The notes beneath the pieces were generated by a model, which worked only from the letters and a program-made list of their open reading frames with translations, was not told the origin of the DNA and did no database searches. This document shows, piece by piece, positions 1,422 to 25,733 of a stretch of 25,733 nucleotides of DNA. Within the stretch, counting starts at the first letter, position 1, and each line of letters begins with the position of its first letter. This DNA comes from a virus (taxonomy: Duplodnaviria > Heunggongvirae > Uroviricota > Caudoviricetes), in the IMG/VR virus record IMGVR_UViG_2585427772_000005, positions 1-25,733 of that record, one strand, 5' to 3'. The position numbers and the translations under genes were made by a program.

Positions 1422-3896
1422 TTAAAAATCAGCCTGACTCGGGATCAGTTTTTGCCAGATAACTGAAACGTATTTTGCCTGGTAACGGGCGTCATCAAGT
1501 GCATTATGGCGCTCACCTTCGAATGGAATAGCCGTTCTGGCATCGAAGTCTATGGCTTTCCCCAGCTCAACGATTGTGCGTACATCGCGATCGTTGTAGT
1601 AACGCCACGGGTAGGGGATCCCCTGCCGTTCGTATGAACGGCGCAAAATCGTGTTGTCGAAGTTGGCTCCATTTCCCCAAACCTGAACAAAAAATTCACC
1701 GGAGTTTTCGTCGATAAATTCCCGCAATTGTAACAGTGCATCATCTAACGGGATTTCATCGGTCATAATGGCAGATTGCGCTTCGCGTGATTGCTTAAGC
1801 CACCATTTAATGGTGTCCCGATCAATGACTCCGCCAGCAGTTTCCAGATCGATAGTCTTACTAAATTCCGGTCCCATATCTCCGGTTTGCGGATCGAAAA
1901 ATATTGCACCTATTGAGATGATCGGGGCATCAGGATTTTTTCCCATGGTTTCAAGGTCGATCATTAGATGGTCACACGTCCTGCTGGTGGATGTGATTTC
2001 TTGATGACCGTTCACCTTAATTGAGTGATCTGCCGTCTCGCCAGTTTCATTATCGCTATCGTGATGCTGATTGCCGTCAGTGTTCTCCTTGTGTGGATGT
2101 TCAGCGCCTTCCATTTCCTCCGGATCATCTTCCTGAACTTCAACCTGATACTCTTCATCGAATGTTTCCTGGTATGTTGCGTCGCCCATCACCGCGCCAC
2201 AATCAGGGCAGTTGCCGCCGCCGGTCTGACCGCAGGCGGTGCAGACTTTTTCCACTTCCTGTTGCGCCACTGGTTCAGGCTGTTTCGTTTCTGGCTCGTT
2301 TTGTAACGCATTTGGGCTGTTTTGTTCCGCTTTCTGGCCGTTCTGTTCCGTTTCTTGCTGGTTCTGATTCACTGAATCGCGGGTTTCAATCCCCTTCACC
2401 CATTTCGGATCATTCGGGTCGCTAATCCCTGCAACAAATTCACCACGTGATACAGCAAGCAACTTATTGGCGTCAGGCTGGCTGATATTGGCTGCCTGCA
2501 TAATTTTGTTTACTTCGTCAGCGGTAACTTTTACCGGCTCTGGTTGTGCGATCGTGTCAGATGCACCAGTATTTTGTTGTGAACCTGAGTACGTGCCGTT
2601 TTTACGTGCGAAGTATTCCTCTTTTGTGATTTCCGTAGCTCCCAGGGCCAGTGCTTTTTCCAGACCAGAAAGTTTGTTTGCGCGACCGTATTTTTCGCCG
2701 TCCTTATCGGTGAAAAGGAAGTAGAACGGTCCCTCACGCTCTACAGATGGTTCGTCTTCCACTTCGCATTCGTTTTTTTCGTTGTCCGGCATTGCCGTTT
2801 CCACTGCATCAGTTTCTGGTACTGGTGACGGGAGAGTACCAGCTGTGCCCTGATTTGTTCCTTCGTCATCTTCAAACACGCCCTTGGTAGTCAGGTATTC
2901 AGTGATGTATTTGTTCAGTGCTACGGGATCTTTGTGAATGTCGATCGGACGCTCACGGACAAGGCCAAAAATAGTCTGACGGTCGTAGCGAACGGCATCG
3001 GGTTGTTTGCGCATTGATGCGGAAATGCGCTTCCAGTCTTCGCGATCTTTGTCGATAACTTCATTTTTTGCCCAGCGATGGATGCTGCCGTCAATGTTTC
3101 CGGTATCAATATCGCCAGGCCAGAGAGCGTAGGCCAGTTCTTCATCCAGCGTTTTCCATGTCTGCTTGTATTCGCGACAAATGGCGGCAGTGACTGGGTT
3201 GATTTTTCCTGCTGAGTTTTCAGTGTTCTGTTGATTGACTCTGGCGCTGGCGAGATCAACAACAGACGTGTATTTTCCAGTCTCTTTGCGCTCTGCGTCC
3301 TGCCGTTTTTTCCAGTTACGTAATTCAGCCTGAATTTCGGGCCATTTGGCACCCGGATTACATTTGTGTTTAACCCATCCGATAGCGAACAGTTTGCGTT
3401 CCGGATACATAGCGTTAATTTCAGGCGTTTTCATCAGTGCTTCAACGATATGCCCGTCAAAGGTAGCAACGTCTTCCTGCAGTAATTCCTGCGCGTCAAT
3501 CGCCATATCAACGGTGATGTTTTCACATGTACCGAACTTAACCAGGACCGCGTTCTGTACTTCAAGGGACAGCTTGTCAAAATTGACGTTCATCGGATCG
3601 GATTCTGGTTCGACCGGAATAAAGGAAGCGGATTCCTCATCCCAGCGGTTTTCCTGCATATATTCAGCATCCCAGGAATCGAGGGCAGGGCGGGGTATAC
3701 CGGGTTTATCCTCGCAGACAAGAAATTTATAAGCGCAGTCCTGAGCAGCCGGATAATGTTCCAGGAATTGCCAGTGAAATTTTGCGCGGGCGCGACGTTC
3801 ATCACCGGCTTCAATGGCAGTGGCTACAGCGACGGCACCTTCTTCCTTTATTGCCTGTTCGTCCGGAATGGCGGCGCAAATAAAGACTTTACTCAT
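1422..3896 (-). CDS. Exodeoxyribonuclease VIII-like protein with a C-terminal DEDDh-type 3'-5' exonuclease domain
   Basis: 824-aa ORF with an SD (TGAGGT) about 9 nt upstream. The C-terminal ~190 aa carry DEDD-type exonuclease motifs (DLETMG ... HNALDDA). The central acidic, Q/E-rich low-complexity region contains a CxxC-N9-CxxC zinc-ribbon-like motif (CTACGQTGGGNCPDCG). The family is common in enterobacterial lambdoid prophages at the exo/recE position. Confidence 0.8.
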   Translation of the reverse strand: MSKVFICAAIPDEQAIKEEGAVAVATAIEAGDERRARAKFHWQFLEHYPAAQDCAYKFLVCEDKPGIPRPALDSWDAEYMQENRWDEESASFIPVEPESDPMNVNFDKLSLEVQNAVLVKFGTCENITVDMAIDAQELLQEDVATFDGHIVEALMKTPEINAMYPERKLFAIGWVKHKCNPGAKWPEIQAELRNWKKRQDAERKETGKYTSVVDLASARVNQQNTENSAGKINPVTAAICREYKQTWKTLDEELAYALWPGDIDTGNIDGSIHRWAKNEVIDKDREDWKRISASMRKQPDAVRYDRQTIFGLVRERPIDIHKDPVALNKYITEYLTTKGVFEDDEGTNQGTAGTLPSPVPETDAVETAMPDNEKNECEVEDEPSVEREGPFYFLFTDKDGEKYGRANKLSGLEKALALGATEITKEEYFARKNGTYSGSQQNTGASDTIAQPEPVKVTADEVNKIMQAANISQPDANKLLAVSRGEFVAGISDPNDPKWVKGIETRDSVNQNQQETEQNGQKAEQNSPNALQNEPETKQPEPVAQQEVEKVCTACGQTGGGNCPDCGAVMGDATYQETFDEEYQVEVQEDDPEEMEGAEHPHKENTDGNQHHDSDNETGETADHSIKVNGHQEITSTSRTCDHLMIDLETMGKNPDAPIISIGAIFFDPQTGDMGPEFSKTIDLETAGGVIDRDTIKWWLKQSREAQSAIMTDEIPLDDALLQLREFIDENSGEFFVQVWGNGANFDNTILRRSYERQGIPYPWRYYNDRDVRTIVELGKAIDFDARTAIPFEGERHNALDDARYQAKYVSVIWQKLIPSQADF

Positions 3897-4374: not shown

Positions 4375-4932
4375 TCAACAATGAATTTTTAGCAATTGCT
4401 CCACAGTCATATTTTTAATTGCGCTCCGGTTTACAAGAGTCCATCCTTGTTTCTCCAGATAAAACCGGAAGGTATCCAGGGTGCAGACCATTGCGCCGTC
4501 AGGAACGGTTTCAGTGAATTTGATATTGCCGTGTTCGTCGAGACGGATAACCAGGGTGCGTCCGTCCCCGTGAATCATTTTGTCGGGAGACGGGGCGTTA
4601 TTCTGGCGCAGTTCTGCTTCCATGCGGTCGAACTCAGCAATGTATGCCTCTTTAAATGCAGCGGCTTTTTTGCCAGTGAAGCCCATCACCAGGAAAACGA
4701 AGCCGTTTTTGGTGATTTGGTACATTGGGAGTTTGCGCCCGGTTGAGTCGGTGTATTCGCTCGACACAAAATTGTGCTCAGTGAATTTTGCTGAACAGTC
4801 CAGATTGCGAATTTTATCCAACACTCGTTCGTGGCGTTTGCCAAAGAACTCGGCGATCGCAACAGACGTAGTGACAGCGCGACCATTTTCGATGGTTACG
4901 TCAGGGTGAGAAAGGGTAAGGATAGTAGCCAT
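4375..4932 (-). CDS. Rha-family phage regulatory protein
   Basis: The ORF track extends this to 5229, but the internal ATG at 4932 is preceded by GGAGG at an 8-nt spacing, and the conserved Rha N-terminal pattern (AIAEFFGKRHERVLDKIRNL ... MYQITKNGFVFLVMGFTGKKAAAFKEAYIAEF) begins just after it. The upstream 99 codons look like a non-coding in-frame extension. Confidence 0.7.
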   Translation of the reverse strand: MATILTLSHPDVTIENGRAVTTSVAIAEFFGKRHERVLDKIRNLDCSAKFTEHNFVSSEYTDSTGRKLPMYQITKNGFVFLVMGFTGKKAAAFKEAYIAEFDRMEAELRQNNAPSPDKMIHGDGRTLVIRLDEHGNIKFTETVPDGAMVCTLDTFRFYLEKQGWTLVNRSAIKNMTVEQLLKIHC

Positions 4933-5775
4933 GATGGCAGCCTCCGCGATGAATTTGATTAACTCACCACCGAGGTTTTCCACGACCATAAGGGTGGTGA
5001 GACGTACAGGGGTGGAAATACCGGTCATCACGGAACCCGGCCAGCCTTGCGGCTGCCCTGCACGCCCCACCATAATGCGAATGTGGCTGTGCTTAACGCA
5101 TAAAAAAACCGCCTGAGCGCGGTTATGCGCCGTGAATGATTTCGGGTTTCCACGCCCGGCACCCGTTTTATGAGGTGCAGGTGCACTATAATTCCACCCG
5201 TTCTGGTTTTCAATAGCTACATTCAACATTTTCTCTACCTTTCATCACCGAAGTGAACTTTGTTGATGCGGTGCCTGGTGCCTCCAGGTGACGTTAACCA
5301 GTTAACAATTAACGTCGGATACAGAGCATTCCCGTTACGCCCGTAAAAGACCGCTTGTTTTAACTGTTCCGCGTGCGCTGAGCCGCATTCACCGCATCAC
5401 AAAATTCACTTTAAAAAGGGCGGCAGAGCAGTCACGGAGTAGAACTGATACCGCCAAAAGTCACCAGAAAATTGATAACAGAGGGCGTTGCAGCGGAGTT
5501 GTCACTTAAGCGTATGGTCAACCTGACAACCCGGTGTCCTCAACGGGGGAAGAAATACCCCCGCCATACTTACCGCCGCGCCATTTCGCGGATTGCCACA
5601 ACCGGAAGCGCACGATCGAATTAAATTTAACGACGACCTATACAGAGAGACTAACTTCTCCGGGCGCTTTCGTGTTATGCCCTGACTTTTCAGGGATATA
5701 TCCTTTTCAGTAAACTGTCAGTGCCGGATTCTTATCCGTGTCCGGCGCACGCACTCTACCTCACCTGTGAATAAA

Positions 5776-11970: not shown

Positions 11971-12229
11971 ATACAGCGAACGCTATTGGTTTAGTTGGAT
12001 ATTTACTGTGCCGGACAAAAACGGTTTGCAGGGAAATCTTAGTTAAGTAGAATGACTGTGGGTGCTTGAGGCTATCTGTCTCAGGCATGAACACCAAAAG
12101 GCAGATAGAGAAAAGCCCCAGTTAACATTACGCGTCCTGCAAGACGCTTAACATTAATCTGAGGCCATATCTATGCTCTACACACGTAGGTTAGCCTCTT
12201 ACGTGCCGAAAGGCAAGGAGAAGCAGGCT

Positions 12230-12385
12230 ATGAAGCAGCAAAAGGCGATGCTAATCGCCCTGATCGTCATCTGTTTAACCGTCATAGTGACGGCACTGGT
12301 AACGAGGAAAGACCTCTGCGAGGTACGAATCCGAACCGGCCAGACGGAGGTCGCTGTCTTCACAGCTTACGAACCTGAGGAGTAA
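12230..12385 (+). CDS. hok: Hok/Gef-family type I toxin (HokD/RelF-like, 51 aa)
   Basis: The translation MKQQKAMLIALIVICLTVIVTALVTRKDLCEVRIRTGQTEVAVFTAYEPEE has the Hok-family hydrophobic helix and conserved LC-E-R core, and matches the chromosomal HokD/RelF sequence as I recall it. The track ORF starting at 12173 is an in-frame upstream extension. A strong terminator follows. Confidence 0.8.
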   Translation: MKQQKAMLIALIVICLTVIVTALVTRKDLCEVRIRTGQTEVAVFTAYEPEE

Positions 12386-14170: not shown

Positions 14171-14545
14171 ATGCTCATAGATTTGGTTTTACCTTACCCG
14201 CCGACGGTGAACACTTACTGGCGACGCCGTGGCAGCACATATTTTGTATCAAAAGCCGGGGAGCGTTATCGCCGGGCAGTGGCGCTTATTGTTCGCCAGC
14301 AGCGGCTGAAATTAAGCCTGTCCGGAAGGCTGGCGATAAAGGTGATTGCAGAGCCACCGGATAAGCGTCGTCGCGACCTGGACAATATCCTGAAAGCACC
14401 GCTGGATGCGCTGACGCATGCGGGAGTGTTAATGGACGATGAGCAGTTTGATGAAATCAATATCGTTCGTGGTCAGCCAGTATCTGGTGGACGTATGGGG
14501 GTGAAGATTTACCCCATAATGCATGAAGAGCAGGTCAAAAAATGA
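14171..14545 (+). CDS. rusA: Crossover junction endodeoxyribonuclease RusA (Holliday junction resolvase)
   Basis: 124-aa ORF with AGAGGTG upstream. Conserved RusA pattern (PPTVNTYWRRRG ... DKRRRDLDNILKAPLDALTHAGVLMDDEQ). Confidence 0.85.
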   Translation: MLIDLVLPYPPTVNTYWRRRGSTYFVSKAGERYRRAVALIVRQQRLKLSLSGRLAIKVIAEPPDKRRRDLDNILKAPLDALTHAGVLMDDEQFDEINIVRGQPVSGGRMGVKIYPIMHEEQVKK

Positions 14546-15363
14546 AACTGGAAGATTTACCGAAATACTACTCCCCAAAATCCCCTGGCCTGACCGATGC
14601 ATCGGCCTCAACGTCAAAAGATGCGCTGAGTATCACTGATGTGATGGCCGCGCAGGGCATGACACAGAATCGGGCTGAGATGGGGTTTTCTGCGTTCCTG
14701 GGGAAAATGGGCATCAGTATGAATGACAGGGCGCGGGCAACAGAATTACTGGCAGATTATGCACTCAGTCGGTGCGATCGTGTGGCGGCGTTGAGAAAAC
14801 TTCCGGCAGAAATAAAACCGGTAGTGATGCGCATTATGGCTTCGTATGCGTTTGAAGATTATGCCCGTAGCGCGGCGAGCAAAAAACAGTGCCCCTGCTG
14901 TCACGGAAAAAAATTTATTGAAAGCGAGGTTTTTACAAACAAGATCCAGTATCCGGATGGTAAGCCACCAGTGTGGGCAAAGTGCACAAAAGGCGTGTAT
15001 CCGTCTTACTGGGAAGAATGGAAAAAAGTCAGGGAGGTGGTAAAAGTTGCCTGTCCGGAGTGTGGCGGAAAGGGTGAGGTTTCCACCGCCTGTAAGGATT
15101 GCCGTGGGCGTGGTGTCGCCATTCATCGTGAAGAGTCGGTAAAACGTGGTATGCCTGTTATCAGAGATTGCCAGCGTTGTGGTGGTCGTGGCTGTGAAAG
15201 GCTGCCATCAACGGAGGCATTTAATGCCATATGCAAAGTGACGAGTGCTATCACGCTTGATACGTGGAAAAAATCAGTGAAACGCTTTTACGATACGTTG
15301 GTGGTTCGGTTTGACATTGAAGAGGCATGGGCGGAGCGGCAGTTAAAGAGGGTAACGCGATAG
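14542..15363 (+). CDS. Late-gene antitermination protein Q (Cys-rich zinc-binding Q family)
   Basis: 273-aa ORF coupled to rusA by an ATGA overlap. Multiple CxxC pairs (CPCCHGK, CPECGGKGE, CKDCRGRG, CQRCGGRGC), placed immediately upstream of a PR'-like promoter. Confidence 0.8.
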   Translation: MKLEDLPKYYSPKSPGLTDASASTSKDALSITDVMAAQGMTQNRAEMGFSAFLGKMGISMNDRARATELLADYALSRCDRVAALRKLPAEIKPVVMRIMASYAFEDYARSAASKKQCPCCHGKKFIESEVFTNKIQYPDGKPPVWAKCTKGVYPSYWEEWKKVREVVKVACPECGGKGEVSTACKDCRGRGVAIHREESVKRGMPVIRDCQRCGGRGCERLPSTEAFNAICKVTSAITLDTWKKSVKRFYDTLVVRFDIEEAWAERQLKRVTR

Positions 15364-15937: not shown

Positions 15938-16987
15938 ATGCTTAATACTGTAAAAATATCCAGTTGTGAGTTAATCAACGCCGACTGCCTGGAATTTATC
16001 CGGTCGTTACCCGAAAATTCTGTTGACCTGATAGTCACGGACCCGCCGTACTTTAAAGTGAAGCCTGAGGGCTGGGATAACCAGTGGAAGGGCGACGATG
16101 ATTACCTGAAGTGGCTGGACCAGTGTCTGGCGCAGTTCTGGCGGGTGCTGAAACCTGTCGGAAGTCTTTACCTGTTCTGTGGTCATCGCCTGGCATCTGA
16201 TATCGAAATCATGATGCGTGAACGCTTCAGTGTGCTGAACCATATTATCTGGGCGAAGCCGTCCGGACGCTGGAACGGATGCAACAAGGAAAGCCTGCGG
16301 GCGTATTTCCCCGCCACAGAGCGCATTCTGTTCGCGGAACATTATCAGGGGCCGTATCGTCCGAAAGATGCCGGGTATGCGGCGAAGGGCAGTGCACTGA
16401 AACAGCATGTGATGGCCCCGCTGATTTCTTACTTTCGTGATGCGCGCGCGGCCCTGGGGATAACGGCAAAACAGATTGCAGATGCCACAGGAAAGAAAAA
16501 CATGGTGTCGCACTGGTTCAGTGCCAGTCAGTGGCAGCTACCGAACGAAAGCGATTATCTGAAATTACAGTCGCTGTTTGCCCGGGTGGCAGAAGAGAAA
16601 CATCAGCGCGGTGAACTGGAAAAGCCCCACCACCAGCTGGTGGATACGTATACGTCACTGAACCGGCAGTATGTGGAGCTGCAGAGTGAATATAAGCATC
16701 TGCGGCGGTATTTTGGTGTGACGGCGCAGGTGCCGTACACGGATGTGTGGACACATAAACCGGTGCAGTTCTATCCCGGGAAACATCCGTGCGAAAAACC
16801 GGCAGAAATGCTGCAGCAGATAATCAGCGCAAGCAGTCGTCCGGGTGACCTGGTTGCAGATTTTTTTATGGGCTCAGGTTCAACGGTAAAAGCTGCACTG
16901 GCGCTCGGGCGTCGTGCGATTGGCGTTGAACTGGAGACCGGACGTTTTGAGCAGACAGTCAGGGAAGTTCAGGATTTAATCGTTTGA
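15938..16987 (+). CDS. Orphan DNA methyltransferase (probably N6-adenine; DPPY motif IV N-terminal to FxGxG motif I)
   Basis: 349-aa ORF. DLIVTDPPYF near the N-terminus and DFFMGSGSTVKAA near the C-terminus. No restriction-endonuclease-like partner ORF is adjacent. Confidence 0.85.
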   Translation: MLNTVKISSCELINADCLEFIRSLPENSVDLIVTDPPYFKVKPEGWDNQWKGDDDYLKWLDQCLAQFWRVLKPVGSLYLFCGHRLASDIEIMMRERFSVLNHIIWAKPSGRWNGCNKESLRAYFPATERILFAEHYQGPYRPKDAGYAAKGSALKQHVMAPLISYFRDARAALGITAKQIADATGKKNMVSHWFSASQWQLPNESDYLKLQSLFARVAEEKHQRGELEKPHHQLVDTYTSLNRQYVELQSEYKHLRRYFGVTAQVPYTDVWTHKPVQFYPGKHPCEKPAEMLQQIISASSRPGDLVADFFMGSGSTVKAALALGRRAIGVELETGRFEQTVREVQDLIV

Positions 16988-17036: not shown

Positions 17037-17112
17037 GGCCCTTTAGCTCAGTGGTGAGAGCGAGCGACTCATAATCGCCAGGTCGCTGGTTCAAATCCAG
17101 CAAGGGCCACCA
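17037..17112 (+). tRNA. tRNA with CAU anticodon, most likely tRNA-Ile2 (lysidine-modified, reads AUA)
   Basis: Cloverleaf read by hand: acceptor GGCCCTT/AAGGGCC, D-arm GCTC..GAGC, anticodon loop CTCATAA, T-arm GCTGG-TTCAAAT-CCAGC, encoded CCA. Closely resembles E. coli tRNA-Ile2 as recalled. Confidence 0.85.
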
Positions 17113-17212
17113 TCACAAACCGCCATTAGCTTATCAGGAAGAGCAGACGACACGATAACAGGGTTGTTGGTGCGGGGGCGGGTCCCCGATGACGGTCCAT
17201 TATCGGTATTCA

Positions 17213-17289
17213 GCGTTGTTAGCTCAGCCGGACAGAGCAATTGCCTTCTAAGCAATCGGTCACTGGTTCGAATCCAGTACAGCGCGCCA
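17213..17289 (+). tRNA. tRNA-Arg (anticodon UCU, reads AGA/AGG)
   Basis: Cloverleaf: acceptor GCGTTGT/ACAGCGC with one G-U pair, anticodon stem ATTGC/GCAAT, loop CTTCTAA, T-arm ACTGG-TTCGAAT-CCAGT, encoded CCA. Confidence 0.9.
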
Positions 17290-17396
17290 TATTCATTCTT
17301 CCAGATTCCTTTCGGCAGAGCCTTATACTGAAATATACCTGGCTCAGGATATTGTTGAAAATATTATATGTTTGTCAAAAATAAAAGTTCTGTTAA

Positions 17397-17753
17397 GTGT
17401 TGATTGAGTGTTTGTTATACGGTCTAATGGTTTTTTCAGCATTAAATATTTATCATTCATATGGTGTGGGTAGAGTGAATATTGATGAGGCGTCGGGGTG
17501 TTTCATCCTTAGGCAGCGTATTGATATAGTCAATGCAGAACGAGCAAAGGCCTTCAGCCGTTTGACAGTTTTGTTCTGTACTCCTGATCGTCTTTCGGGA
17601 AGAGACGTTATTATTCTGAATAGTGATGCTATACAGAGGGTTTGCGATGAGTTCATGGTGGCTAATTCAGAATTATTTGCTCTTGTTCAGGAGTACAACA
17701 GAATAGCCAGGACCTGTGGTATGGATGAACTTCGGATTACTCATCTGGGGTAG
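17397..17753 (+). CDS. Hypothetical cargo ORF, up to 118 aa; start uncertain
   Basis: Open frame in the AT-rich segment. No convincing SD before either the GTG at 17397 or the ATG at 17427. Composition is protein-like. Confidence 0.3.
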   Translation: MLIECLLYGLMVFSALNIYHSYGVGRVNIDEASGCFILRQRIDIVNAERAKAFSRLTVLFCTPDRLSGRDVIILNSDAIQRVCDEFMVANSELFALVQEYNRIARTCGMDELRITHLG

Positions 17754-18144
17754 ATACATATCTGGATTATCACCGGTTACGGTAAAAAGTGATTGCTTAC
17801 TGTTTTTGTGAATGGCATTGCAGCAGCCGGATAATGTCAGTGCTGGCTGACGGTGTGCTGGTGGCGGGGGTGGTGGTTGCTGCTTTCCCGTTGCTGAAAA
17901 AGAAAACGCCAGACTGTTAGCCGGGTATCAGTTAGCGGGAGAAATTTTTAAATACTTCACAATTCAGGCGGTTGACTGTTGTCTGGTTTGCGGGGAGTTT
18001 GTTAAAAGAAACTGGCATGGTGAATCCCCCTGTGCGGAGGGGCAATCAGCGAGTAGGTATATGGGATAATCGCGGATTCAGGTGCTGGTACTGAATTCAC
18101 CGGGAGGCACCCGGCACCATGCAATGGCACATAGCGCCACTCTC

Positions 18145-18178
18145 CAGCCCCTCTCCGGAGGGGCTGTTTATATTGATT
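18145..18178 (+). terminator. Strong rho-independent terminator
   Basis: 9-bp perfect GC-rich stem CAGCCCCTC / GAGGGGCTG with loop TCCG, followed by TTTATATTGATTTT. It lies 23 nt beyond the 3' end of the minus-strand ORF 18201..18536. Confidence 0.65.
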
Positions 18179-18200
18179 TTGTCAGATGTGAGTAAACTCC

Positions 18201-18536
18201 TTATGGACTTTGTTGTTTTAGCCCATAAGGACATATTTGCAGAGTGCAACGGTTATTAAAGCATTCATTCAATACGTTATCTGTATTTGTAGGGCATTCC
18301 TGGCTGTTTTTGATTAAATTCCAGAATGTTTTATTGAATGGTACTACGTTGTAAATGGTTACAGGCAGCACTTTGTTATTGAGCATGATGCCTGTGTGAG
18401 TCAGTGTAAATATACTTTCAGGAGGTAAGAAAGCATCCGATTGATACCAGATTATTAATTTTATTTTACTCCATATGACTGAAAAAGATATTCCGCATGA
18501 TGGCTGGATAACTGTATCAATCACAATCCACTTCAT
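18201..18536 (-). CDS. Hypothetical AT-rich cargo protein, 111 aa, on the opposite strand to the late operon
   Basis: AAGGAA 6 nt upstream of the ATG at 18536. Cys-containing C-terminus ([16 protein letters not shown]). A 245-bp AT-rich promoter-like region lies upstream. I recognise no family. Confidence 0.5.
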
Positions 18537-18781
18537 TTAGTTTCCTTGTTTATGCCTTGCTGGTGATGTTCTGAAAAGTATAAATGATATTTTTGATTGT
18601 AAACCATAGAGCAGAATTATTTTTCTGATGTTGTTTATTGTTTATTTAAATGCAGGGTGGTTTATATCTCGTCTTGTAGTTTATCCATGCATATCTGCTT
18701 GATGATGAGGTTTTTAATTAAGGTATGGTTTTGTGTTTTTTCTGTATTACATGTCAGGTATTTTAAAGAATCATTTTTCAG

Positions 18782-20647
18782 ATGGTGGAAAGAACCATGG
18801 CATTTAAACACTATGATGTTGTCAGGGCGGCGTCGCCGTCAGATCTTGCGGAAAAGCTGACACATAAACTGAAAGAGGGCTGGCAGCCGTTTGGTAGTCC
18901 GGTGGCCATAACCCCTTATACCCTGATGCAGGCGATTGCAGCAGAAGGTGATGTGGTCGTCAGTGGTGCAACTGAGCCGGAGTGGTACTACGTCATCGTA
19001 CTGGCCGGGCAGTCCAATGCCATGGCTTACGGTGAAGGGCTTCCGCTTCCGGATTCATACGATGCGCCCCATCCGCGCATTAAGCAACTGGCCCGTCGTA
19101 ACACAGTGACTCCCGGTGGTGAAGTATGCGTATTTAACGACATCATTCCTGCTGACCATTGTCTGCATGATGTTCAGGATATGAGTACGATTAACCATCC
19201 CCGGGCTGACCTGAGCAAAGGGCAGTACGGCTGTGTCGGACAGGGCTTACATATTGCCAAAAAACTGCTTCCGTATATCCCTAATAACGCGGGGATCCTG
19301 CTGGTACCATGCTGTCGTGGTGGTTCGGCATTCACCCAGGGCACGGAGGGGACATTCAGCGAGTCCACGGGGGCCAGTCAGGATTCGGCTCGCTGGGGAG
19401 TGGGTAAGCCGTTATATCAGGATCTGCTTTTCCGCACGAAGGCAGCATTGCAGAAAAACCCGAAAAACGTTTTGCTGGCGATATGCTGGATGCAGGGGGA
19501 ATTCGATATGACGAATGCCAGTTACGCCCAGCAGCCAGCAGCATTTCTTGCAATGGTACAGCAGTTCCGTGCTGACCTTGCCGGGCTGGCGGCGCAGTGT
19601 CACGGTGGAAGTCCGGCATCAGTCCCCTGGATTTGTGGCGACACGACATACGCGTGGAAACAAGAACACGGTACGCAATATGAAGTGGTATATGGTGCAT
19701 ATAAAGGTAAAGAATCCCAGCAGATTTATTTTGTTCCCTTTATGACCGATGGTAGCGGAGTTAATACACCGACAAACAACCCGTCAGAAGATCCTGATAT
19801 TGTCGGGTCTGGTTATTACGGTTCGGCATCCCGAACGAACAAAAACTGGGTATCATCAAATCGCCCGACGCATTTCAGCTCATGGGCGCGTCGTGGCATT
19901 ATTCCCGATCGTATGGCAACCGCTATTCTGAACGCAGCCGGGCGCACCTCAGCCTTCATCAGTGGTAAGGCACCGGAAATCAAACCCTCGCCCGGCGGCG
20001 ACACGCCATCGGGTCCGTCTGCAGATACGTCCGTTCGCACAATCTCCCTGCTGCCGACAGCCGGAGAGGCTGCTGCGCAGGGCTGGAGCATTAAGAATGG
20101 CGGAATTCAGTTGTCAGATGGTGTATTTAAGATCACCAAGCAGAGCAATAAAGCCTGGTCCCTGACGCGCCCGGTGGATGACGCAGTCTCCCTGCTGACA
20201 CGGGGTGGCAGACTGAGCTGTAAGTTTCGACTGTCAGGCGCACTGACCAACAACCAGTTCGGTCTGGGAATTTATCTGTATACCGATGTAGCGTTACCTG
20301 ACGTCGTGGCGATGACCGGGACTGGTAACCCGTTCCTGATGTCGTTCTTCACCCAGACCACAGACGGCAAACTGAATCTGATGCATCACAAGAAAGCCGG
20401 AAACACAAAGTTGGGCGAGTTCGGGAATTACAGTAACGACTGGCAGACGCTGGAGCTGGTGTTCACCGCCGGCAGTGCCACGGTTACTCCGAAACTGAAT
20501 GGAGTGGCTGGCCCGGCATTCCAGGTCATAAAAGACAGTCTGACACTGGGGCTGAATGCGCTGACGTTAACTGATATCACTAAAAATGCCGCGTACGGCG
20601 TCGATATCGGCAGCCTGGTGCTGGAAATCAATAATCCCGCAGCATAA
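18782..20647 (+). CDS. NanS-p-like sialate O-acetylesterase (DUF1737 N-domain, SASA/SGNH esterase domain, C-terminal lectin-like domain)
   Basis: 621-aa ORF. VIVLAGQSNAMAYGEG is the SGNH/SASA catalytic-serine motif. Same architecture and position (after the tRNAs) as the nanS-p/yjhS-like genes of Stx phages. The alternative start at 18797 (MAFKHYDV) has a modest SD. Confidence 0.8.
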   Translation: MVERTMAFKHYDVVRAASPSDLAEKLTHKLKEGWQPFGSPVAITPYTLMQAIAAEGDVVVSGATEPEWYYVIVLAGQSNAMAYGEGLPLPDSYDAPHPRIKQLARRNTVTPGGEVCVFNDIIPADHCLHDVQDMSTINHPRADLSKGQYGCVGQGLHIAKKLLPYIPNNAGILLVPCCRGGSAFTQGTEGTFSESTGASQDSARWGVGKPLYQDLLFRTKAALQKNPKNVLLAICWMQGEFDMTNASYAQQPAAFLAMVQQFRADLAGLAAQCHGGSPASVPWICGDTTYAWKQEHGTQYEVVYGAYKGKESQQIYFVPFMTDGSGVNTPTNNPSEDPDIVGSGYYGSASRTNKNWVSSNRPTHFSSWARRGIIPDRMATAILNAAGRTSAFISGKAPEIKPSPGGDTPSGPSADTSVRTISLLPTAGEAAAQGWSIKNGGIQLSDGVFKITKQSNKAWSLTRPVDDAVSLLTRGGRLSCKFRLSGALTNNQFGLGIYLYTDVALPDVVAMTGTGNPFLMSFFTQTTDGKLNLMHHKKAGNTKLGEFGNYSNDWQTLELVFTAGSATVTPKLNGVAGPAFQVIKDSLTLGLNALTLTDITKNAAYGVDIGSLVLEINNPAA

Positions 20648-20670
20648 GGAAGAGCAGGAGAGCAAAACAG

Positions 20671-21138
20671 ATGCTTAAGACAAACAGTCTGCGAGAGTCC
20701 ATGCTTCATGGGTGTCGGTGGTGCCAGGCTAATCCCGAGAAATTCACCATTTTCGTGGAGAGCGGCAACATTGAAACGACCGGAGAAGCGCCCTCGTTTG
20801 TTTACCGCTATCAGATGGTGATGTTTGTCATGGATTACGCCGGAGAGCTGGACGACCTCACGCTGCCGCTGCTGGCGTGGTTATCCGAAAATCAGCCACA
20901 GTTGTTGCTCAATCCGGAGCGTAATCAGGACATCAAATTTTCTGCCGTTATCAATGACGATGACAGCGCCGATCTCCTGTTTACGCTCCCCCTGCGGGAA
21001 CGCGTTCGCATCACGCGCAACAGTCAGGGCACACCGCAGGCAGAACACCTGCCGGAGCCAAAACCCCGTCTGCCCTCTTCCGAAGGCGACTGGTCGCATG
21101 TATTCCAGGATGTGACGTGGGGTGAAAGCGATGGATAA
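20671..21138 (+). CDS. P2 gpR-like tail completion protein
   Basis: 155-aa ORF with AGGAG upstream. Similar in length and sequence to P2 R as recalled (LPLLAWLSENQP against P2 VPVLAWLRENQP). Confidence 0.75.
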   Translation: MLKTNSLRESMLHGCRWCQANPEKFTIFVESGNIETTGEAPSFVYRYQMVMFVMDYAGELDDLTLPLLAWLSENQPQLLLNPERNQDIKFSAVINDDDSADLLFTLPLRERVRITRNSQGTPQAEHLPEPKPRLPSSEGDWSHVFQDVTWGESDG

Positions 21139-21766
21139 GGCATTCACCAGCGTGGATGAAACCTTTGAGGCTATCCGCGACAGCCTGAATCAGCAGGCCA
21201 TCAATAACATCGCCAGAAAGCTGGCACAGGATTTACGTCGCGCCCAGCAGGCACGTATCCGATCACAAAAAGCGCCGGACGGGACCGAATGGACACCACG
21301 CAGACGCCGCGTAACCCGGATACAGGAGCGCATTCGCTTTATCTGGAATAACGAAGCACGCACGCTGAAAAACTGGCATCACGACACGGGGAAATACGGG
21401 CGAACCATTACCGGGTGGGATGAGGATAAAAACAATATCCGCACGTTTTACCGGGATGACATCGACCGTTTTCTGGAAATACGCACCCGGCGCATCAACC
21501 AGGACAGCACAAAGCGCGTCCCCATGTTCGTAAAACTGCGCACCGCCCGCTACCTGAAAGCCCGTGCAGATGCCTCCGGTGTGACGGTGGGTTACAGCGG
21601 CGTGGCCGCACGTATTGCACGCGTTCATCAGTTCGGTGAGCGCGATCAGGTTGCGCCGGGCATTTTCACCGATTACCCGGTACGTGAGCTGTTGGGTATC
21701 AGCCAGGCAGATGAGCGCCTGATTTATAACACGGTGCTGGGCCGGATTGCGGAGGCTGTACGGTGA
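21131..21766 (+). CDS. P2 gpS-like tail completion / virion morphogenesis protein
   Basis: ATG overlaps the R stop (ATGGATAA). Position between R and V and family resemblance; longer than P2 S. Confidence 0.65.
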   Translation: MDKAFTSVDETFEAIRDSLNQQAINNIARKLAQDLRRAQQARIRSQKAPDGTEWTPRRRRVTRIQERIRFIWNNEARTLKNWHHDTGKYGRTITGWDEDKNNIRTFYRDDIDRFLEIRTRRINQDSTKRVPMFVKLRTARYLKARADASGVTVGYSGVAARIARVHQFGERDQVAPGIFTDYPVRELLGISQADERLIYNTVLGRIAEAVR

Positions 21767-22344
21767 GCGCAGAACTCATGCGACTGCTGAGCAACATCAT
21801 CCGCACCGGGATCATCTCTGAAGTTGATGAGAAGTCCTGGCGCGTGCGCGTTCGCAGCGGCGAACTGGAAACAGGCTGGTTGCGCTGGAACACCACGCGC
21901 GCGGGAGCCTTCAATGTGTGGCTGCCGCCATCACCAGGCGAACAGGTGGTAATTGCCTGCATTGGCGGCAACCCGGAAACCGCCATGATAATTGGCAGCC
22001 TGTGGAGTGATGCCAGTCCGGCCCCCGGCAAAAGCCTGAAAGAAATCGTGGTCAGCGCGCCGGATGGCGCGGTGTTCCGCTACGACGCAGACGCTGGCGC
22101 ACTGAGCGCCAGCGGCATGAAAACAGCCACCCTGCAGGCATCCGTCAGCGTGACACTGGATACGCCCGTCGTGGAATGCACAAACCTTCTGAGAACAGCG
22201 ACGCTTGACGTCACAAAAGGGGGAAAGATGAGCGGCAATATCACGCACAGCGGCGGCAACTTCACCTCAAACGGCATCACAGTGCATACGCATAAACACG
22301 GTGGTGTGAAAGGCGGCAGCGATTCGACAGGAGGCCCGCAGTGA
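21763..22344 (+). CDS. Baseplate assembly protein V (P2 gpV-like spike)
   Basis: Strong similarity to P2 V across the length (IRTGII ... GEQVVIACIGG ... PDGAVFRYD ... TLDTPVVECTN ... KGGKMSGNITHSGG ... HTHKHGG). GTG start overlaps the S stop. Confidence 0.85.
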   Translation: MSAELMRLLSNIIRTGIISEVDEKSWRVRVRSGELETGWLRWNTTRAGAFNVWLPPSPGEQVVIACIGGNPETAMIIGSLWSDASPAPGKSLKEIVVSAPDGAVFRYDADAGALSASGMKTATLQASVSVTLDTPVVECTNLLRTATLDVTKGGKMSGNITHSGGNFTSNGITVHTHKHGGVKGGSDSTGGPQ

Positions 22345-22691
22345 CAACCCGCTACACAGGAATGAATCCGGACGGGACGGGAAACCTGAATGATATGGAG
22401 CACCTGAAACAGTCAGCCAGGGACATCCTGACCACCCCGCTGGCCAGCCGGGTTATGCGACGGGAATATGGCAGCCTTGTACCTGATTTGATTGACGAAC
22501 CCATGAATAACACCACGCGTCTGCAATGCATGAGTGCTGCCGTGATTGCGCTGACACGATGGGAACCCCGCATTGCCCTGGACGCCATCGACGTTGTCTG
22601 GAAAGCGGGAGGCCGCGCCGGGGTGACGCTGTCGGGCACTGTCATGCAGACCATGCAGAATGTTGAGTTAACCATCACGCTGAGGGAGTAA
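22341..22691 (+). CDS. Baseplate assembly protein W (P2 gpW, gp25-like)
   Basis: VTTRYTGMN ... RVMRREYGSL ... WEPRIAL against P2 W MTARYLGMN ... RVMRRDYGSL ... WEPRVTL. GTGA overlap with V. Confidence 0.85.
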   Translation: MTTRYTGMNPDGTGNLNDMEHLKQSARDILTTPLASRVMRREYGSLVPDLIDEPMNNTTRLQCMSAAVIALTRWEPRIALDAIDVVWKAGGRAGVTLSGTVMQTMQNVELTITLRE

Positions 22692-22694
22692 ATC

Positions 22695-23591
22695 ATGCCT
22701 GCTGTTGACCTTTCCCAGTTACCGGAACCCGCCATCATCGCGAAGCCTGATTTTGAGGCAATTCTGGCTGACACAAAGGCCATGATGATTGCGTCCTATC
22801 CTGCCGAACAGCGTGAAGCCGTCTCCGCCGCGCTGGAGCTGGAATCGGAACCCCTGAACGTTATCGCCCAGACAACAGCGTTTCGTGAAATGCTGTTACG
22901 CCAGCGGGTCAATGAGGGTGCACGCGCCTGCATGTTAAGCCACAGCGCCGGGACAGACCTGGACAACCTCGCGGGCAATATGAACACAAAGCGCCTGGTT
23001 ATCACTCCGGCAACGGATACCACCGACGCGGTGATGGAAAGCGACACATCGCTGAGACTGCGGGCGCAACGGGCGTATGACGGTCTGAGTGTTGCTGGCC
23101 CGTCAGGCGCATACGAGTATTTTGCACGCAGCGCCAGCGGTCTGGTACGCGACGCGCGAGCCATCAGCCCGTCTCCGGCCAACGTGACGGTTTCCATCCT
23201 GTCCACTGAAGGCGACGGCACAGCAACGGAGGCGTTGCTTAATACCGTTCGCGCCGTTCTGAATGCAGAGGATACCCGCCCGGTGGCCGACCGCCTGACC
23301 GTACAGAGCGCCAGAATCGTGACATGGCGGCTGAATGCAAAACTGTACTTTTACCCCGGCCCGGAATCCGAACCTATTCTGGCCGCGGCTGAATCGTCGT
23401 TCAGGAAGTGGCTGGCTGAGCAGGGGCTTATCGGTCAGGACGTGGCGTTGTCCGCCATTGCTGCCGCACTGCATGTGCACGGTGTGCAACGCGTGGAGAT
23501 AATCGAACCCACACAGAATATGGCCATCAGCGACATACAGGCGGCGCGCTGTGAGTCATTCACCATCAGCGAAGGTGGACGCAATGAGTAA
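22695..23591 (+). CDS. Baseplate assembly protein J (P2 gpJ)
   Basis: Near-collinear similarity to P2 J (LPEPAIIAKPDFE ... RQRVNE ... DGLSVAG ... YEYFARSA ... RPVADRLTVQSA ... YPGPESEPI ... LHVHGVQRVE). GGGAG upstream. Confidence 0.9.
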   Translation: MPAVDLSQLPEPAIIAKPDFEAILADTKAMMIASYPAEQREAVSAALELESEPLNVIAQTTAFREMLLRQRVNEGARACMLSHSAGTDLDNLAGNMNTKRLVITPATDTTDAVMESDTSLRLRAQRAYDGLSVAGPSGAYEYFARSASGLVRDARAISPSPANVTVSILSTEGDGTATEALLNTVRAVLNAEDTRPVADRLTVQSARIVTWRLNAKLYFYPGPESEPILAAAESSFRKWLAEQGLIGQDVALSAIAAALHVHGVQRVEIIEPTQNMAISDIQAARCESFTISEGGRNE

Positions 23592-24192
23592 TTCGTTGTT
23601 ACCACCATCAGCCAGCAATTTCATGCGTTGTGCCGAAGCCGTCGGAACACGCATTACAGACATTCCGGTAGACCTCAACACGCTGTGGTCGCCGGACACC
23701 TGCCCGGTGCATCTGCTGCCTTATCTCGCCTGGGCGTTTTCCGTTGACCGCTGGGATCGCAACTGGCCGGAAGAGACAAAGCGACAGGTGATTCGTGATG
23801 CATGGCTGATACACCGACACAAAGGGACCATCAGCGCACTGCGAAGAGCCGTGGAGCCTCTCGGCTACCTGATTGAAGTAAAGGAGTGGTGGCAACTCAA
23901 CGAGGAGCCGGGAACATTTCGCATTGTTGTCGGAGTACTTGATCAGGGCATCACCGATGAAATGTATCAGGAACTTGAGCGCCTTATTGCGGATGCAAAA
24001 CCAGTAAGTCGCCATCTGACGGGGCTGGCGATCAGCCTGAGTGTGAACGGAAAGATTTTCGTTGGTACGGGATGCTATCACGGCGATGCCCTGACGGTTT
24101 ATCCCTACACCCCGGAGTCCATTATTGTCGAAGGGGATTATTTCCCTGCCCCGGCCATTCATTTAATTGATAATCTGAGAGTAAACGCATGA
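23584..24192 (+). CDS. Tail protein I (P2 gpI)
   Basis: ATG overlaps the J stop (ATGAGTAA); the track start at 23551 lies inside J. Similarity to P2 I (WSPDTCPVHLLPYLAWAFSVDRWD ... HKGTISALRRAVEPLGYLI ... IADAKPVSRHL). Confidence 0.85.
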   Translation: MSNSLLPPSASNFMRCAEAVGTRITDIPVDLNTLWSPDTCPVHLLPYLAWAFSVDRWDRNWPEETKRQVIRDAWLIHRHKGTISALRRAVEPLGYLIEVKEWWQLNEEPGTFRIVVGVLDQGITDEMYQELERLIADAKPVSRHLTGLAISLSVNGKIFVGTGCYHGDALTVYPYTPESIIVEGDYFPAPAIHLIDNLRVNA

Positions 24193-25733
24193 CAGTGAAA
24201 TACTACGCCATTCTGACTAATCAGGGCGCGGCACGACTGGCTAACGCGACGATGCTCGGCAGTAAGCTGAATCTGACGCGAATGGCCGTTGGTGATGCAA
24301 ATGGTGTGTTACCAACACCAGACCCTGCACAAACAAAACTGATTAACCAGAAACGCATTGCACCGCTGAATCTTCTGAGTGTTGACCCTAACAATCAGAG
24401 CCAGATTATTGCGGAGCAAATCATCCCTGAAAGCGAGGGTGGATTCTGGATCCGTGAGATTGGTCTTTATGATGATAAAGGTGTACTCATTGCGGTGGCA
24501 AACTGCCCGGAAACGTACAAACCGCAGTTGCAGGAAGGCAGTGGACGCACCCAGACTATCCGCATGATTCTGGTTGTCACGAACACCGAAGCCATCACGC
24601 TGAAAATCGACCCGTCTGTGGTTCTGGCAACCCGCAAATATGTGGATGATAAAATCTCAAAGCACGAGCAGTCACGACGTCACCCGGACGCCTCGCTGAC
24701 CGCAAAAGGCTTTGTTCAACTTAGCAGTGCCACGGACAGTCAATCAGAAACTGAGGCTGCCACGCCGAAGGCTGTGAAAATCGCGTATGATCTGGCCTGG
24801 GGAAAATACACAGCCCAGGATGCAACAACGACCCGTAAAGGGATCGTACAACTGAGCAGTGCCACCAACAGCACCTCTGAAACGCTGGCCGCCACACCAA
24901 AAGCCGTCAAGGCGGCATACGACCTTGCAGCCGGCAAGGCCCCCGTCAGCCACACTCACCCATGGAGTCAGATAACGGGAGTGCCTGCTGCCTCGCTGAC
25001 GGCAAAAGGCACCGTACAACTGAGCAGTGCCATCAACAGCACGTCTGAAATACTGGCCGCCACACCGAAAGCGGTCAAGGATGCATACGATCTGGCAAAC
25101 GGAAAACAACCGGCAGATGCCACGCTCACTGCTCTGGCAGGACTTGCCACTGCAGCAGATCGGTTGCCTTATTTTACCGGAGCAGACCGCGCAGCGCTGG
25201 CAACCCTTACAGCTATTGGTCGCGCTATTATCGCTAAGGGCAGTATAAAAGATGTCCTCAATTACCTTGGTTTGGGGGAAGGCTCTGCATTGCCTGTTGG
25301 TGTACCGGTTCCGTGGCCCACCGCCACACCGCCAGAAGGCTGGTTAAAGTGCGACGGGCGCGCCTTTACAAAAGAACAATATCCTGTTCTGGCCAGAGCC
25401 TACCCGACCCTCCGTCTTCCCGATTTACGCGGTGAATTTATTCGTGGCTGGGATGACGGACGTGGTGTGGATGCCGGGCGACAATTATTATCTTCACAGG
25501 GGGATGCAATAAGAAATATTGAGGGATTCGCAGATGGCGGGATCGGTATGTCTTTTGATGCAATCAGAGGGGCTTTTTACGATGCAGGAACACGATCAGC
25601 GAGAATGCCGAATAACACAACTACTATAGACAAAACCGATGACCTTGGATTCGACGCCTCTCGTGTCGTGCCAACAGCTAATGAAAACCGTCCTCGTAAT
25701 ATTGCCTTTAATTATATCGTAAGGGCGGCATAA
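24189..25733 (+). CDS. Tail fibre protein (P2 gpH-like N-terminus, three tail-fibre repeats, C-terminal collar/receptor-binding-like domain)
   Basis: ATGA overlap with I. The N-terminus matches P2 H (GGFWIREIGLYDDKGVLIAVAN ... YKPQLQEGSGR ... KYVDDKISKHEQSRRHPDASLTAKGF). The stop codon is at the last three bases of the window. Confidence 0.85.
   Translation: MTVKYYAILTNQGAARLANATMLGSKLNLTRMAVGDANGVLPTPDPAQTKLINQKRIAPLNLLSVDPNNQSQIIAEQIIPESEGGFWIREIGLYDDKGVLIAVANCPETYKPQLQEGSGRTQTIRMILVVTNTEAITLKIDPSVVLATRKYVDDKISKHEQSRRHPDASLTAKGFVQLSSATDSQSETEAATPKAVKIAYDLAWGKYTAQDATTTRKGIVQLSSATNSTSETLAATPKAVKAAYDLAAGKAPVSHTHPWSQITGVPAASLTAKGTVQLSSAINSTSEILAATPKAVKDAYDLANGKQPADATLTALAGLATAADRLPYFTGADRAALATLTAIGRAIIAKGSIKDVLNYLGLGEGSALPVGVPVPWPTATPPEGWLKCDGRAFTKEQYPVLARAYPTLRLPDLRGEFIRGWDDGRGVDAGRQLLSSQGDAIRNIEGFADGGIGMSFDAIRGAFYDAGTRSARMPNNTTTIDKTDDLGFDASRVVPTANENRPRNIAFNYIVRAA
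24690..25110 (+). repeat. Three tandem roughly 145-bp in-frame repeats in the fibre gene (TAKGxVQLSSAxNSTSExLAATPKAVKxAYDLAxGK)
   Basis: Direct reading of DNA and protein. The repeats also create the spurious antisense ORFs 24740..24955, 24744..25109 and 24968..25150. Confidence 0.8.

Follow-up and report, generated by a model that had tools for sequence, protein, structure and literature searches.

An STnc100-family small RNA gene beside a shortened DUF3927/TciB-like reading frame in a lambdoid prophage region

STnc100 (Rfam RF02076) is a Gammaproteobacterial small RNA that was first listed in Salmonella, and it is among the most frequently annotated bacterial sRNA families (PMC9029176). EDL933 has 11 copies, all of them transcribed and one of them Northern-positive, and ribosome footprints have been reported on several (PMC5331693). 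The copy carried by Stx2 phages, 75 nt past stx2B (PMC12370729), is the RNA named EcOnc27 in Sakai and sRNA103 in EDL933 (also treated in PMC12711010). EcOnc27 has been crosslinked to Hfq and gives bands of about 235 and 247 nt on Northern blots, the 247-nt form being destabilised in the absence of hfq (PMC4104026 supplement), and the stxAB genes have been described as 'bookended' by Hfq-binding sRNAs (PMC7873438). Effects of an STnc100 member on fimZ and espA were seen on overexpression only (PMC12711010, PMC7873438), and variation in the Stx2-phage copy is statistically linked to HUS risk (PMC12711010).

Two further groups of prophage sRNAs are relevant. PasD1 and PasD2 of EPEC E2348/69 are about 172 nt long, with Hfq-dependent stability, targets found by RIL-seq, and a 3' seed (PMC8550237). 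PasD2 is the most abundant CsrA-bound chimera partner, and Hfq may therefore not be the sole partner. In a 2026 preprint (bioRxiv 10.64898/2026.05.13.724894) the Storz laboratory proposes, from structure and synteny, a common ancestor for STnc100 and PasD1/PasD2. AgvB and AsxR (RF02702, RF02703) occupy the neighbouring slot in Stx-type prophages, where they are convergent with the STnc100-type RNA; they are 51-60 nt long, come from the strand opposite to that of STnc100, and have no sequence relationship to it.

The locus described here lies in a viral DNA stretch of 25,733 nt (IMG/VR record IMGVR_UViG_2585427772_000005, positions 1 to 25,733), which is referred to as the window. It is a lambdoid prophage region, with the plus-strand order DUF968 gene, rusA, Q, methylase, tRNAs, ORFs, RNA, esterase. 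The Q antiterminator gene (Pfam Antiterm) is at 14542-15363 and the DNA methylase gene at 15938-16987, followed by two tRNAs called by ARAGORN (17037-17112 and 17213-17289) and a 118-aa ORF (17397-17753). The latter belongs to PHROG 2873 (E 1.7e-70), a family of unknown function; it matches nothing in Pfam or NCBIfam, and PGAP does not annotate it in E. coli O104:H4. Downstream of the RNA is an iraM-like anti-adapter gene on the minus strand (18201-18536; NCBIfam 162 bits, PHROG 4407), which is convergent with the RNA and sits between it and a SASA/DUF1737 NanS-p-type esterase gene on the plus strand (18782-20647). The prophage of O104:H4 strain 2011C-3493 is 99.9% identical to the window over 17300-18800.

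Some other features of the window may be recorded here. Between the two called tRNAs is a degenerate argN-like middle tRNA (17113-17212), which keeps its acceptor ends and has diverged in the anticodon and T arms, and was not called; RefSeq lists tRNA-Ile, Arg and Arg in the matching stretch of O104:H4. P2-type tail genes (gpR, gpS, gpV, gpW, gpJ, gpI and tail fibre) lie directly 3' of the esterase gene at 20671-25733, at the place where the near-identical O104:H4 prophage has holin, lysozyme and Rz genes. The window is a lambdoid early/Q region fused to a P2-like tail module, with no lysis cassette, and the same junction is present in 375 complete E. coli genomes. Further Rfam matches above threshold are C4 antisense RNA (4990-5077, minus), isrK (5102-5178, minus), DicF (5418-5469, minus) and sok (12060-12235, plus), the last being upstream of a 70-aa ORF (12173-12385) that may be a hok-type toxin.

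Between the 118-aa ORF and the iraM-like gene, a sequence-only reading had described the segment 17754-18200 as an ORF-free, hairpin-rich stretch ending in a strong terminator, and suggested a structured noncoding RNA rather than decayed coding sequence. There is indeed no ORF of 60 aa or more between 17753 and 18201, and the segment is richer in GC than its flanks, as stated (0.47-0.55 in 17775-18224, compared to 0.29-0.44 upstream and 0.29-0.39 downstream). The covariance-model search that had been suggested as a check gave a full-length match to STnc100: in an Rfam scan of the whole window, RF02076 matches 17986-18175 on the plus strand, over model positions 1-206 of 206, with a score of 132.4 bits against a gathering threshold of 47 (E 2.8e-29). 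In a permissive scan of 17300-21300, no other Rfam family matched at E<=1. The score is above threshold, the helices are maintained by compensatory change, the 3' end is a Rho-independent terminator, and the gene is in the lambdoid late-region moron slot expected of STnc100/EcOnc27, after Q and the cargo and before the esterase. The helices, terminator, prophage setting and presence of multiple copies per genome are all as in STnc100, and nothing excludes membership. The 3' half of the segment is therefore a catalogued prophage sRNA gene, and not a new class. Among the refinements made here, the STnc100 consensus line given by cmscan lacks the P3 pseudoknot described below and shows another register for helix P2.

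Folding analysis divides the segment in the same way. The region 17986-18180 is more structured than chance (minimum free energy z -2.2), and its predicted fold reproduces the main STnc100 helices, recovering P1, P2, P4 and P5; by contrast, the 232 nt of 17754-17985 are no more structured than shuffled sequences (z +0.13). The suggestion of a structured RNA thus holds for 17986-18180 but not for the 5' 170 nt or so, where there is a DUF3927/TciB-like ORF.

Several other types of element were considered for the RNA. A tRNA-like gene was rejected, with neither ARAGORN nor Rfam giving one there. The pseudoknot and the occurrence of tandem copies, both described below, raised the options of a type III toxin-antitoxin RNA, a put-like antiterminator, a riboswitch and a ribozyme, which were rejected for want of a conserved downstream gene, an Rfam match or a conserved metabolic context. 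A pR'-tR' leader, equivalent to lambda 6S or StxS, was also rejected, the RNA being 0.4-2.6 kb past Q with genes intervening.

Of the 5,426 E. coli genomes that are complete, 2,785 carry the 166-nt window RNA, and a single genome may have it at as many as 11 places. At these matches RefSeq has only 'hypothetical protein' and no RNA feature. In both O104:H4 and EPEC E2348/69, PGAP places a minus-strand 'incomplete hypothetical protein' pseudo-CDS over the sRNA gene (18002-18130 in the window; 4706-4831 in the O104:H4 locus L003; 898-1139 in the E2348/69 locus L235) and no ncRNA feature; this pseudo-CDS is probably an annotation artefact. Searching the literature by sequence strings found only a primer table. 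In work on STEC vesicles (PMC12370729), STnc_100 was assayed with qPCR primers that have exact matches in the window, at 18017-18036 and 18089-18108.

The fold was analysed using related copies from other genomes. A genome-wide scan with the 22-mer 18098-18119 gave 110 loci in many Enterobacteriaceae genera. They yielded 113 distinct copies, from which 65 representatives with less than 85% identity were taken. In a second scan, of viral contigs by the P2 motif, 90 of the 129 copies had the exact 22-mer, and most of those shown without it are one or two substitutions away. The comparison outlines a conserved 5' structured domain of about 108 nt (18015-18122, plus strand). It contains P1 (18015-18022 with 18115-18122, in which GGUG pairs with CACC at 18115-18118), P2 (18025-18030 with 18036-18042, A18038 being bulged), the P3 pseudoknot, a variable insert (18052-18070), a CGCG motif (18071-18074), P4 (18074-18081, GGAUUCAG, with 18091-18098, CUGAAUUC), and P5 (18100-18104 with 18110-18114, with the loop AGGCA). 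An alignment of 42 sequences (A2) was used to test P1, P2, the first four pairs of P4, and P5. Standard pairs occupy 94.3% of the cells, compared to at most 49.8% with the partners slid, and nine pairs show double-sided changes against a shuffled mean of 5.1; none of 500 shuffles came up to these values. RNAalifold found the same nested helices. P5 never varies and is therefore uninformative either way, its invariance being in part a product of the sampling of copies.

For P2, the bulged register UCCCCC/GG(A)GGGG is paired in 99.2% of cells in the 42 sequences and has three pairs with double changes. The register CCCCU/AGGGG, which is that of the Rfam consensus line and of the sequence-only reading, is paired in 88.1%, its U-A pair being present in only 24 of the 42, and is the less well supported of the two. 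The hairpin noted near 18025-18041 is thus real (18025-18042), but in a different register. Of the other pairings that had been picked out, that of GGTGAATC with GATTCACC does not stand: the second string is absent, 18093-18101 reading GAATTCACC, of which only 7 nt pair with GGTGAAT, and covariation assigns the two strands to P1 and P4. The palindrome CCATGCAATGG is present at 18117-18127, but its 5' half is really the 3' strand of P1. Syntenic copies do maintain the helices by compensatory changes, a point that had been put forward for checking.

P3 is an H-type pseudoknot, formed between the stretch that follows P2 (18045-18051, AUCAGCG) and the loop of P4 (18083-18089, UGCUGGU). The MAFFT register drifts between rows at the pseudoknot columns, and the pairing was therefore tested sequence by sequence, by swapping partners. 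For P3, strands form a mean of 6.27 contiguous base pairs with their own partners and 5.05 with those of other sequences (0 of 5000 permutations; 51 distinct helices); for P4, the values are 7.05 and 4.72 (0 of 5000; 54 distinct helices). P1, P2 and P4 thus covary across more than 60 diverse Enterobacteriaceae copies, and the P3 pseudoknot is also supported. We did not find a description of the pseudoknot, or of the modular division into 5' domain and 3' tail, in the literature searched.

Homology between copies starts near 17941 (alignment A1), and the block 17941-18014 on the plus strand is common to the E. coli phage copies. It holds a candidate promoter, with a -35 of TTGTCT (17979-17984) and, after a 17-nt spacer, a -10 of TTAAAA (18002-18007) preceded by TG (18000-18001); there is a second motif, TAAATA, at 17946-17951. 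The promoter is weak and non-canonical, and a generic promoter scan made no call. Across the family, however, relative to the GGUG of P1, hexamers resembling a -10 are enriched 13-15 nt upstream and those resembling a -35 are enriched 37-38 nt upstream, and the TTGACT-17-TTAAAA of PasD2 aligns with the TTGTCT and TTAAAA of the window. The published start of PasD2 (NC_011601, position 741157) is the first base of GCAUGGUG, which is the first base of P1. Because of this clustering and the mapped 5' end of PasD2, the start of the window RNA is placed at about 18015, which would give a transcript of probably about 160 nt ending near 18175. The first 29 or so positions of RF02076 (17986-18014) would then probably be promoter and not transcript. 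The sizes of EcOnc27 on Northern blots (235-247 nt) are greater than the distance from P1 to the terminator, which makes the 5' end tentative and suggests a longer form, possibly starting near 17940-17960.

After the 5' domain comes a single-stranded linker (18123-18144, plus strand, AAUGGCACAUAGCGCCACUCUC), which by analogy with relatives is a candidate for the seed and the Hfq-contact region. It varies among copies that have the same 5' domain. The RNA ends in an intrinsic terminator (18145-18180, plus strand), and here the 9-bp GC stem and U-tract recognised earlier are confirmed: the stem at 18145-18166 (CAGCCCCUC with GAGGGGCUG) has seven G-C pairs and the 4-nt loop UCCG, and is followed by the U-rich tail TTTATATTGATTTT. 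It is backed by a terminator scan, by the predicted fold and by the 3' end of the Rfam model. There are three terminator-like sites in 17300-18800, compared to 1.1 +/- 1.1 in shuffles. The same 5' domain is joined to differing linkers and terminators in the window, in the Shigella Stx1 phage 75/02, in the Sp5-type copies and in the copies L001/L002, and numerous E. coli matches end at query nt 109, which is the end of P1.

The 5' part of the segment looked free of ORFs only because of the 60-aa cut-off. It contains a 43-aa ORF with a GTG start (17789-17920, plus strand), encoding a hydrophobic DUF3927/TciB-like peptide, which RefSeq annotates in O104:H4 as WP_001438304.1. It matches Pfam PF13064 (DUF3927) over positions 7-53 of 53 with 92.7 bits (gathering threshold 25, E 1.3e-26), and PHROG 1470 'TciB-like' over its residues 12-40 only (profile positions 23-51). 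Nearly all members of DUF3927 are from E. coli or Shigella, with one partial match labelled Pseudomonas aeruginosa. The annotated forms are mostly 23-64 aa long, commonly 28, 43 and 54-57 aa, and the common core is the C-terminal 28 aa, which in the window starts from the ATG at 17834.

The C-terminal 29-31 residues (SSRIMSVLADGVLVAGVVVAAFPLLKKK) are conserved between the window ORF and DUF3927/TciB. Phage JLK-2012 has a 54-aa tciB that follows a TerB-like tciA, and relative to this gene the window has lost about 20 nt by deletion, together with the ATG of tciB. The hydrophobic helix at the N-terminus is missing from the window ORF (the 52-57 aa members have the N-terminal half), which so is not the full-length two-helix TciB. 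It also lacks a tciA partner, the ORF upstream of it belonging to a different family (PHROG 2873). In view of the deletions, the 43-aa ORF is an N-terminally truncated derivative, and because the N-terminal half of tciB has been lost in this way, the 5' portion of the segment does correspond to a degraded form of a gene that is intact in JLK-2012. Judged by its sequence, the ORF may be either functional or a remnant.

The RNA does not occupy the position equivalent to stx, as had been proposed. In the Stx1 phage 75/02 (locus L005) the STnc100 match is at 3472-3670, which is 79-277 nt past the end of stx1B (3393); the esterase gene begins at 3870, downstream of the RNA, and a convergent AgvB (3666-3725) abuts the terminator. 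Stx phages keep the RNA about 75-110 nt after stxB, and the RNA thus adjoins stx and is not replaced by it. The true cargo slot of the window lies at about 17290-17940, upstream of the RNA, and holds the 118-aa ORF and the DUF3927 ORF. The order tRNAs, cargo, sRNA, SASA/NanS-p esterase is common to O104:H4, JLK-2012, 75/02 and EPEC E2348/69. In the window, the iraM-like gene fills the slot that the anti-sRNAs AgvB or AsxR have in Stx phages.

Clustering of neighbouring genes shows two main settings for copies of the RNA. One is in lambdoid prophages, between Q and the holin/lysozyme/Rz genes. The other is chromosomal, in Kosakonia, Klebsiella and Enterobacter, where the RNA lies between a LuxR-type regulator, which is divergent, and a porin of the KdgM type. 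In loci with a KdgM/OmpL-type porin (L010, L024, L033, L038 and about 15 others) the RNA domain is about 80-200 nt before the start of the porin gene, and in at least one locus such a copy is near typA/bipA. A variant class with a long P1 is found in prophage early regions, with a Shine-Dalgarno sequence and ATG directly after it. Tandem cores, two or three within a few hundred bases, are seen on the viral contigs L119, L124, L135, L169, L117 and L123.

EcOnc27 resembles the window RNA in family, in slot (after the cargo and before the esterase), and in the sequences of P1, P2 and P5. The Sp5-type copy (for example L104) differs in the letters of P3 and P4, the central insert, the linker and the terminator. 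The Hfq peak and Northern probe of EcOnc27 fall in the linker and terminator of the copy in Sp5. EcOnc27 follows stx2B and converges with AsxR, whereas the window RNA follows the DUF3927 ORF and converges with the iraM-like gene. AgvB and AsxR themselves gave no match at E<=1 in 17300-21300; the positive control, 75/02, gave AgvB at 56.6 bits.

PasD2 likewise lies between a DUF3927 ORF and a SASA esterase gene, with promoter motifs that align with those of the window, and mean column identity over the region from the DUF3927 ORF to the sRNA is 69%. It keeps P1, P3 (AUGAUC/GAUCAU) and P4 (GAGUUCUG/CAGAACUU) with different, compensatory letters. However, its P5 is reduced to GCG-GGAGG-CGC, its linker differs and carries the seed UGUGAG (L235, 993-998), and RF02076 does not reach threshold on it. 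The UGUGAG seed is absent from the window RNA, which also differs in linker and P5. The window RNA is thus a positional and structural relative of PasD, and not a PasD variant.

The reading that we favour, with a probability of roughly 0.78, is of a prophage moron locus that carries a shortened DUF3927/TciB-like ORF and an STnc100-family sRNA gene, the RNA being Hfq-associated and acting in trans. In the lysogen the RNA would have a weak promoter of its own and would run from about 18015 to the intrinsic terminator near 18175. It would have two modules: the pseudoknotted conserved 5' domain (18015-18122), and a variable 3' tail made up of the linker, terminator hairpin and U tail. By analogy with its relatives, the 3' tail would bind Hfq and base-pair with targets in trans, with specificity in 18123-18144 and the terminator as the Hfq module; such an RNA is favoured because it is the 3' tail that contains the seed of PasD and, in EcOnc27, the Hfq peak and the probe. 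During lytic growth we infer, as the sequence-only reading reasonably proposed for late Q-dependent transcription, that Q-modified polymerase coming from pR' would pass the terminator and continue into the esterase gene. It is nevertheless the 5' domain, and not the presumed seed, that is the most conserved part, which is unusual for a plain base-pairing sRNA.

This conservation suggests another reading, which we consider possible though unlikely, in which the 5' domain 18015-18122 is the functional core, binding a protein, the ribosome or a small ligand, while the tail serves only for termination and stability. Its loops and junctions are near-invariant across genera while its stems covary, although this invariance arises in part from the exact-match collection of copies. 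It has an H-type pseudoknot inside a multi-helix junction, one domain is found with different tails, and on some viral contigs it is in tandem arrays. Its Shine-Dalgarno-like GGGAGG, part of a near-invariant hairpin, is kept even in the divergent PasD2, and the ribosome footprints on several EDL933 copies and the dominance of PasD2 among CsrA-bound chimeras also point this way. However, the domain matches no other Rfam family (riboswitch, ribozyme or tRNA-like), in relatives the seeds and Hfq peaks have been mapped to the 3' tail, and a structured 5' domain could merely shield the RNA from RNase E. We therefore suggest only tentatively that this domain of about 108 nt is a distinct and widespread Enterobacteriaceae RNA module, to which phages attach interchangeable tails, and whose function may exceed seed pairing; CsrA, Hfq, the 30S subunit or another factor may bind it.

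Two further explanations concern what lies downstream of the RNA or within it. That the RNA is a cis-acting leader or attenuator of late genes (the esterase here, lysis genes in other phages) is improbable. The RNA is on the same strand as the esterase gene and upstream of it, in other Enterobacteriaceae it is upstream of holin and lysozyme genes or of a KdgM-type porin gene, and in a subset of variant copies a Shine-Dalgarno sequence and ATG follow it directly. In the window, however, the convergent iraM-like gene (18201-18536) separates RNA and esterase, and in Stx phages the convergent AgvB or AsxR abuts the terminator. The downstream genes vary among copies with no single one conserved, which argues against a dedicated cis-regulatory role, and the related RNAs build up as stable, discrete species that bind Hfq and have partners in trans. 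Decayed or cryptic coding sequence in the hairpin-rich part, either a 46-aa ORF (18119-18259) or a minus-strand 42-aa ORF (18002-18130), is far less probable still. The minus-strand pseudo-CDS of PGAP, the GGAGG located 11 nt before the AUG at 18119, and the ribosome-profiling signal on some copies would fit it. But the pattern of conservation is one of RNA helices: it includes compensatory changes as well as G-U pairs, which the other strand would show as A-C mismatches; the variable insert has indels of every length; and the 46-aa ORF crosses the terminator. Most genera have CACCAC in place of the AUG at 18119, and a small ORF starting there was rejected since this AUG is not conserved.

The arrangement around this AUG may be noted separately. 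Within 18103-18121, P5 carries a Shine-Dalgarno-like GGAGG, and AUG 18119 comes 11 nt later, in the 3' strand of P1; in PasD2 a GGAGG is followed after 4 nt by the AUG of a 14-codon hydrophobic ORF. This arrangement may explain the ribosome footprints on some EDL933 copies.

The feature is thus real but ordinary, since it consists of an already known sRNA family beside a known small ORF. Its RNA is widespread, being present in about half of the complete E. coli genomes, and RefSeq annotates a pseudo 'hypothetical protein' in its place. What novelty there is lies in the conserved pseudoknotted 5' domain, and a function centred on it is a minority reading. The refined fold does provide handles for experiments, namely the pseudoknot, the register of P2, a probable start where P1 begins, and the division into two modules, 5' domain and 3' tail.
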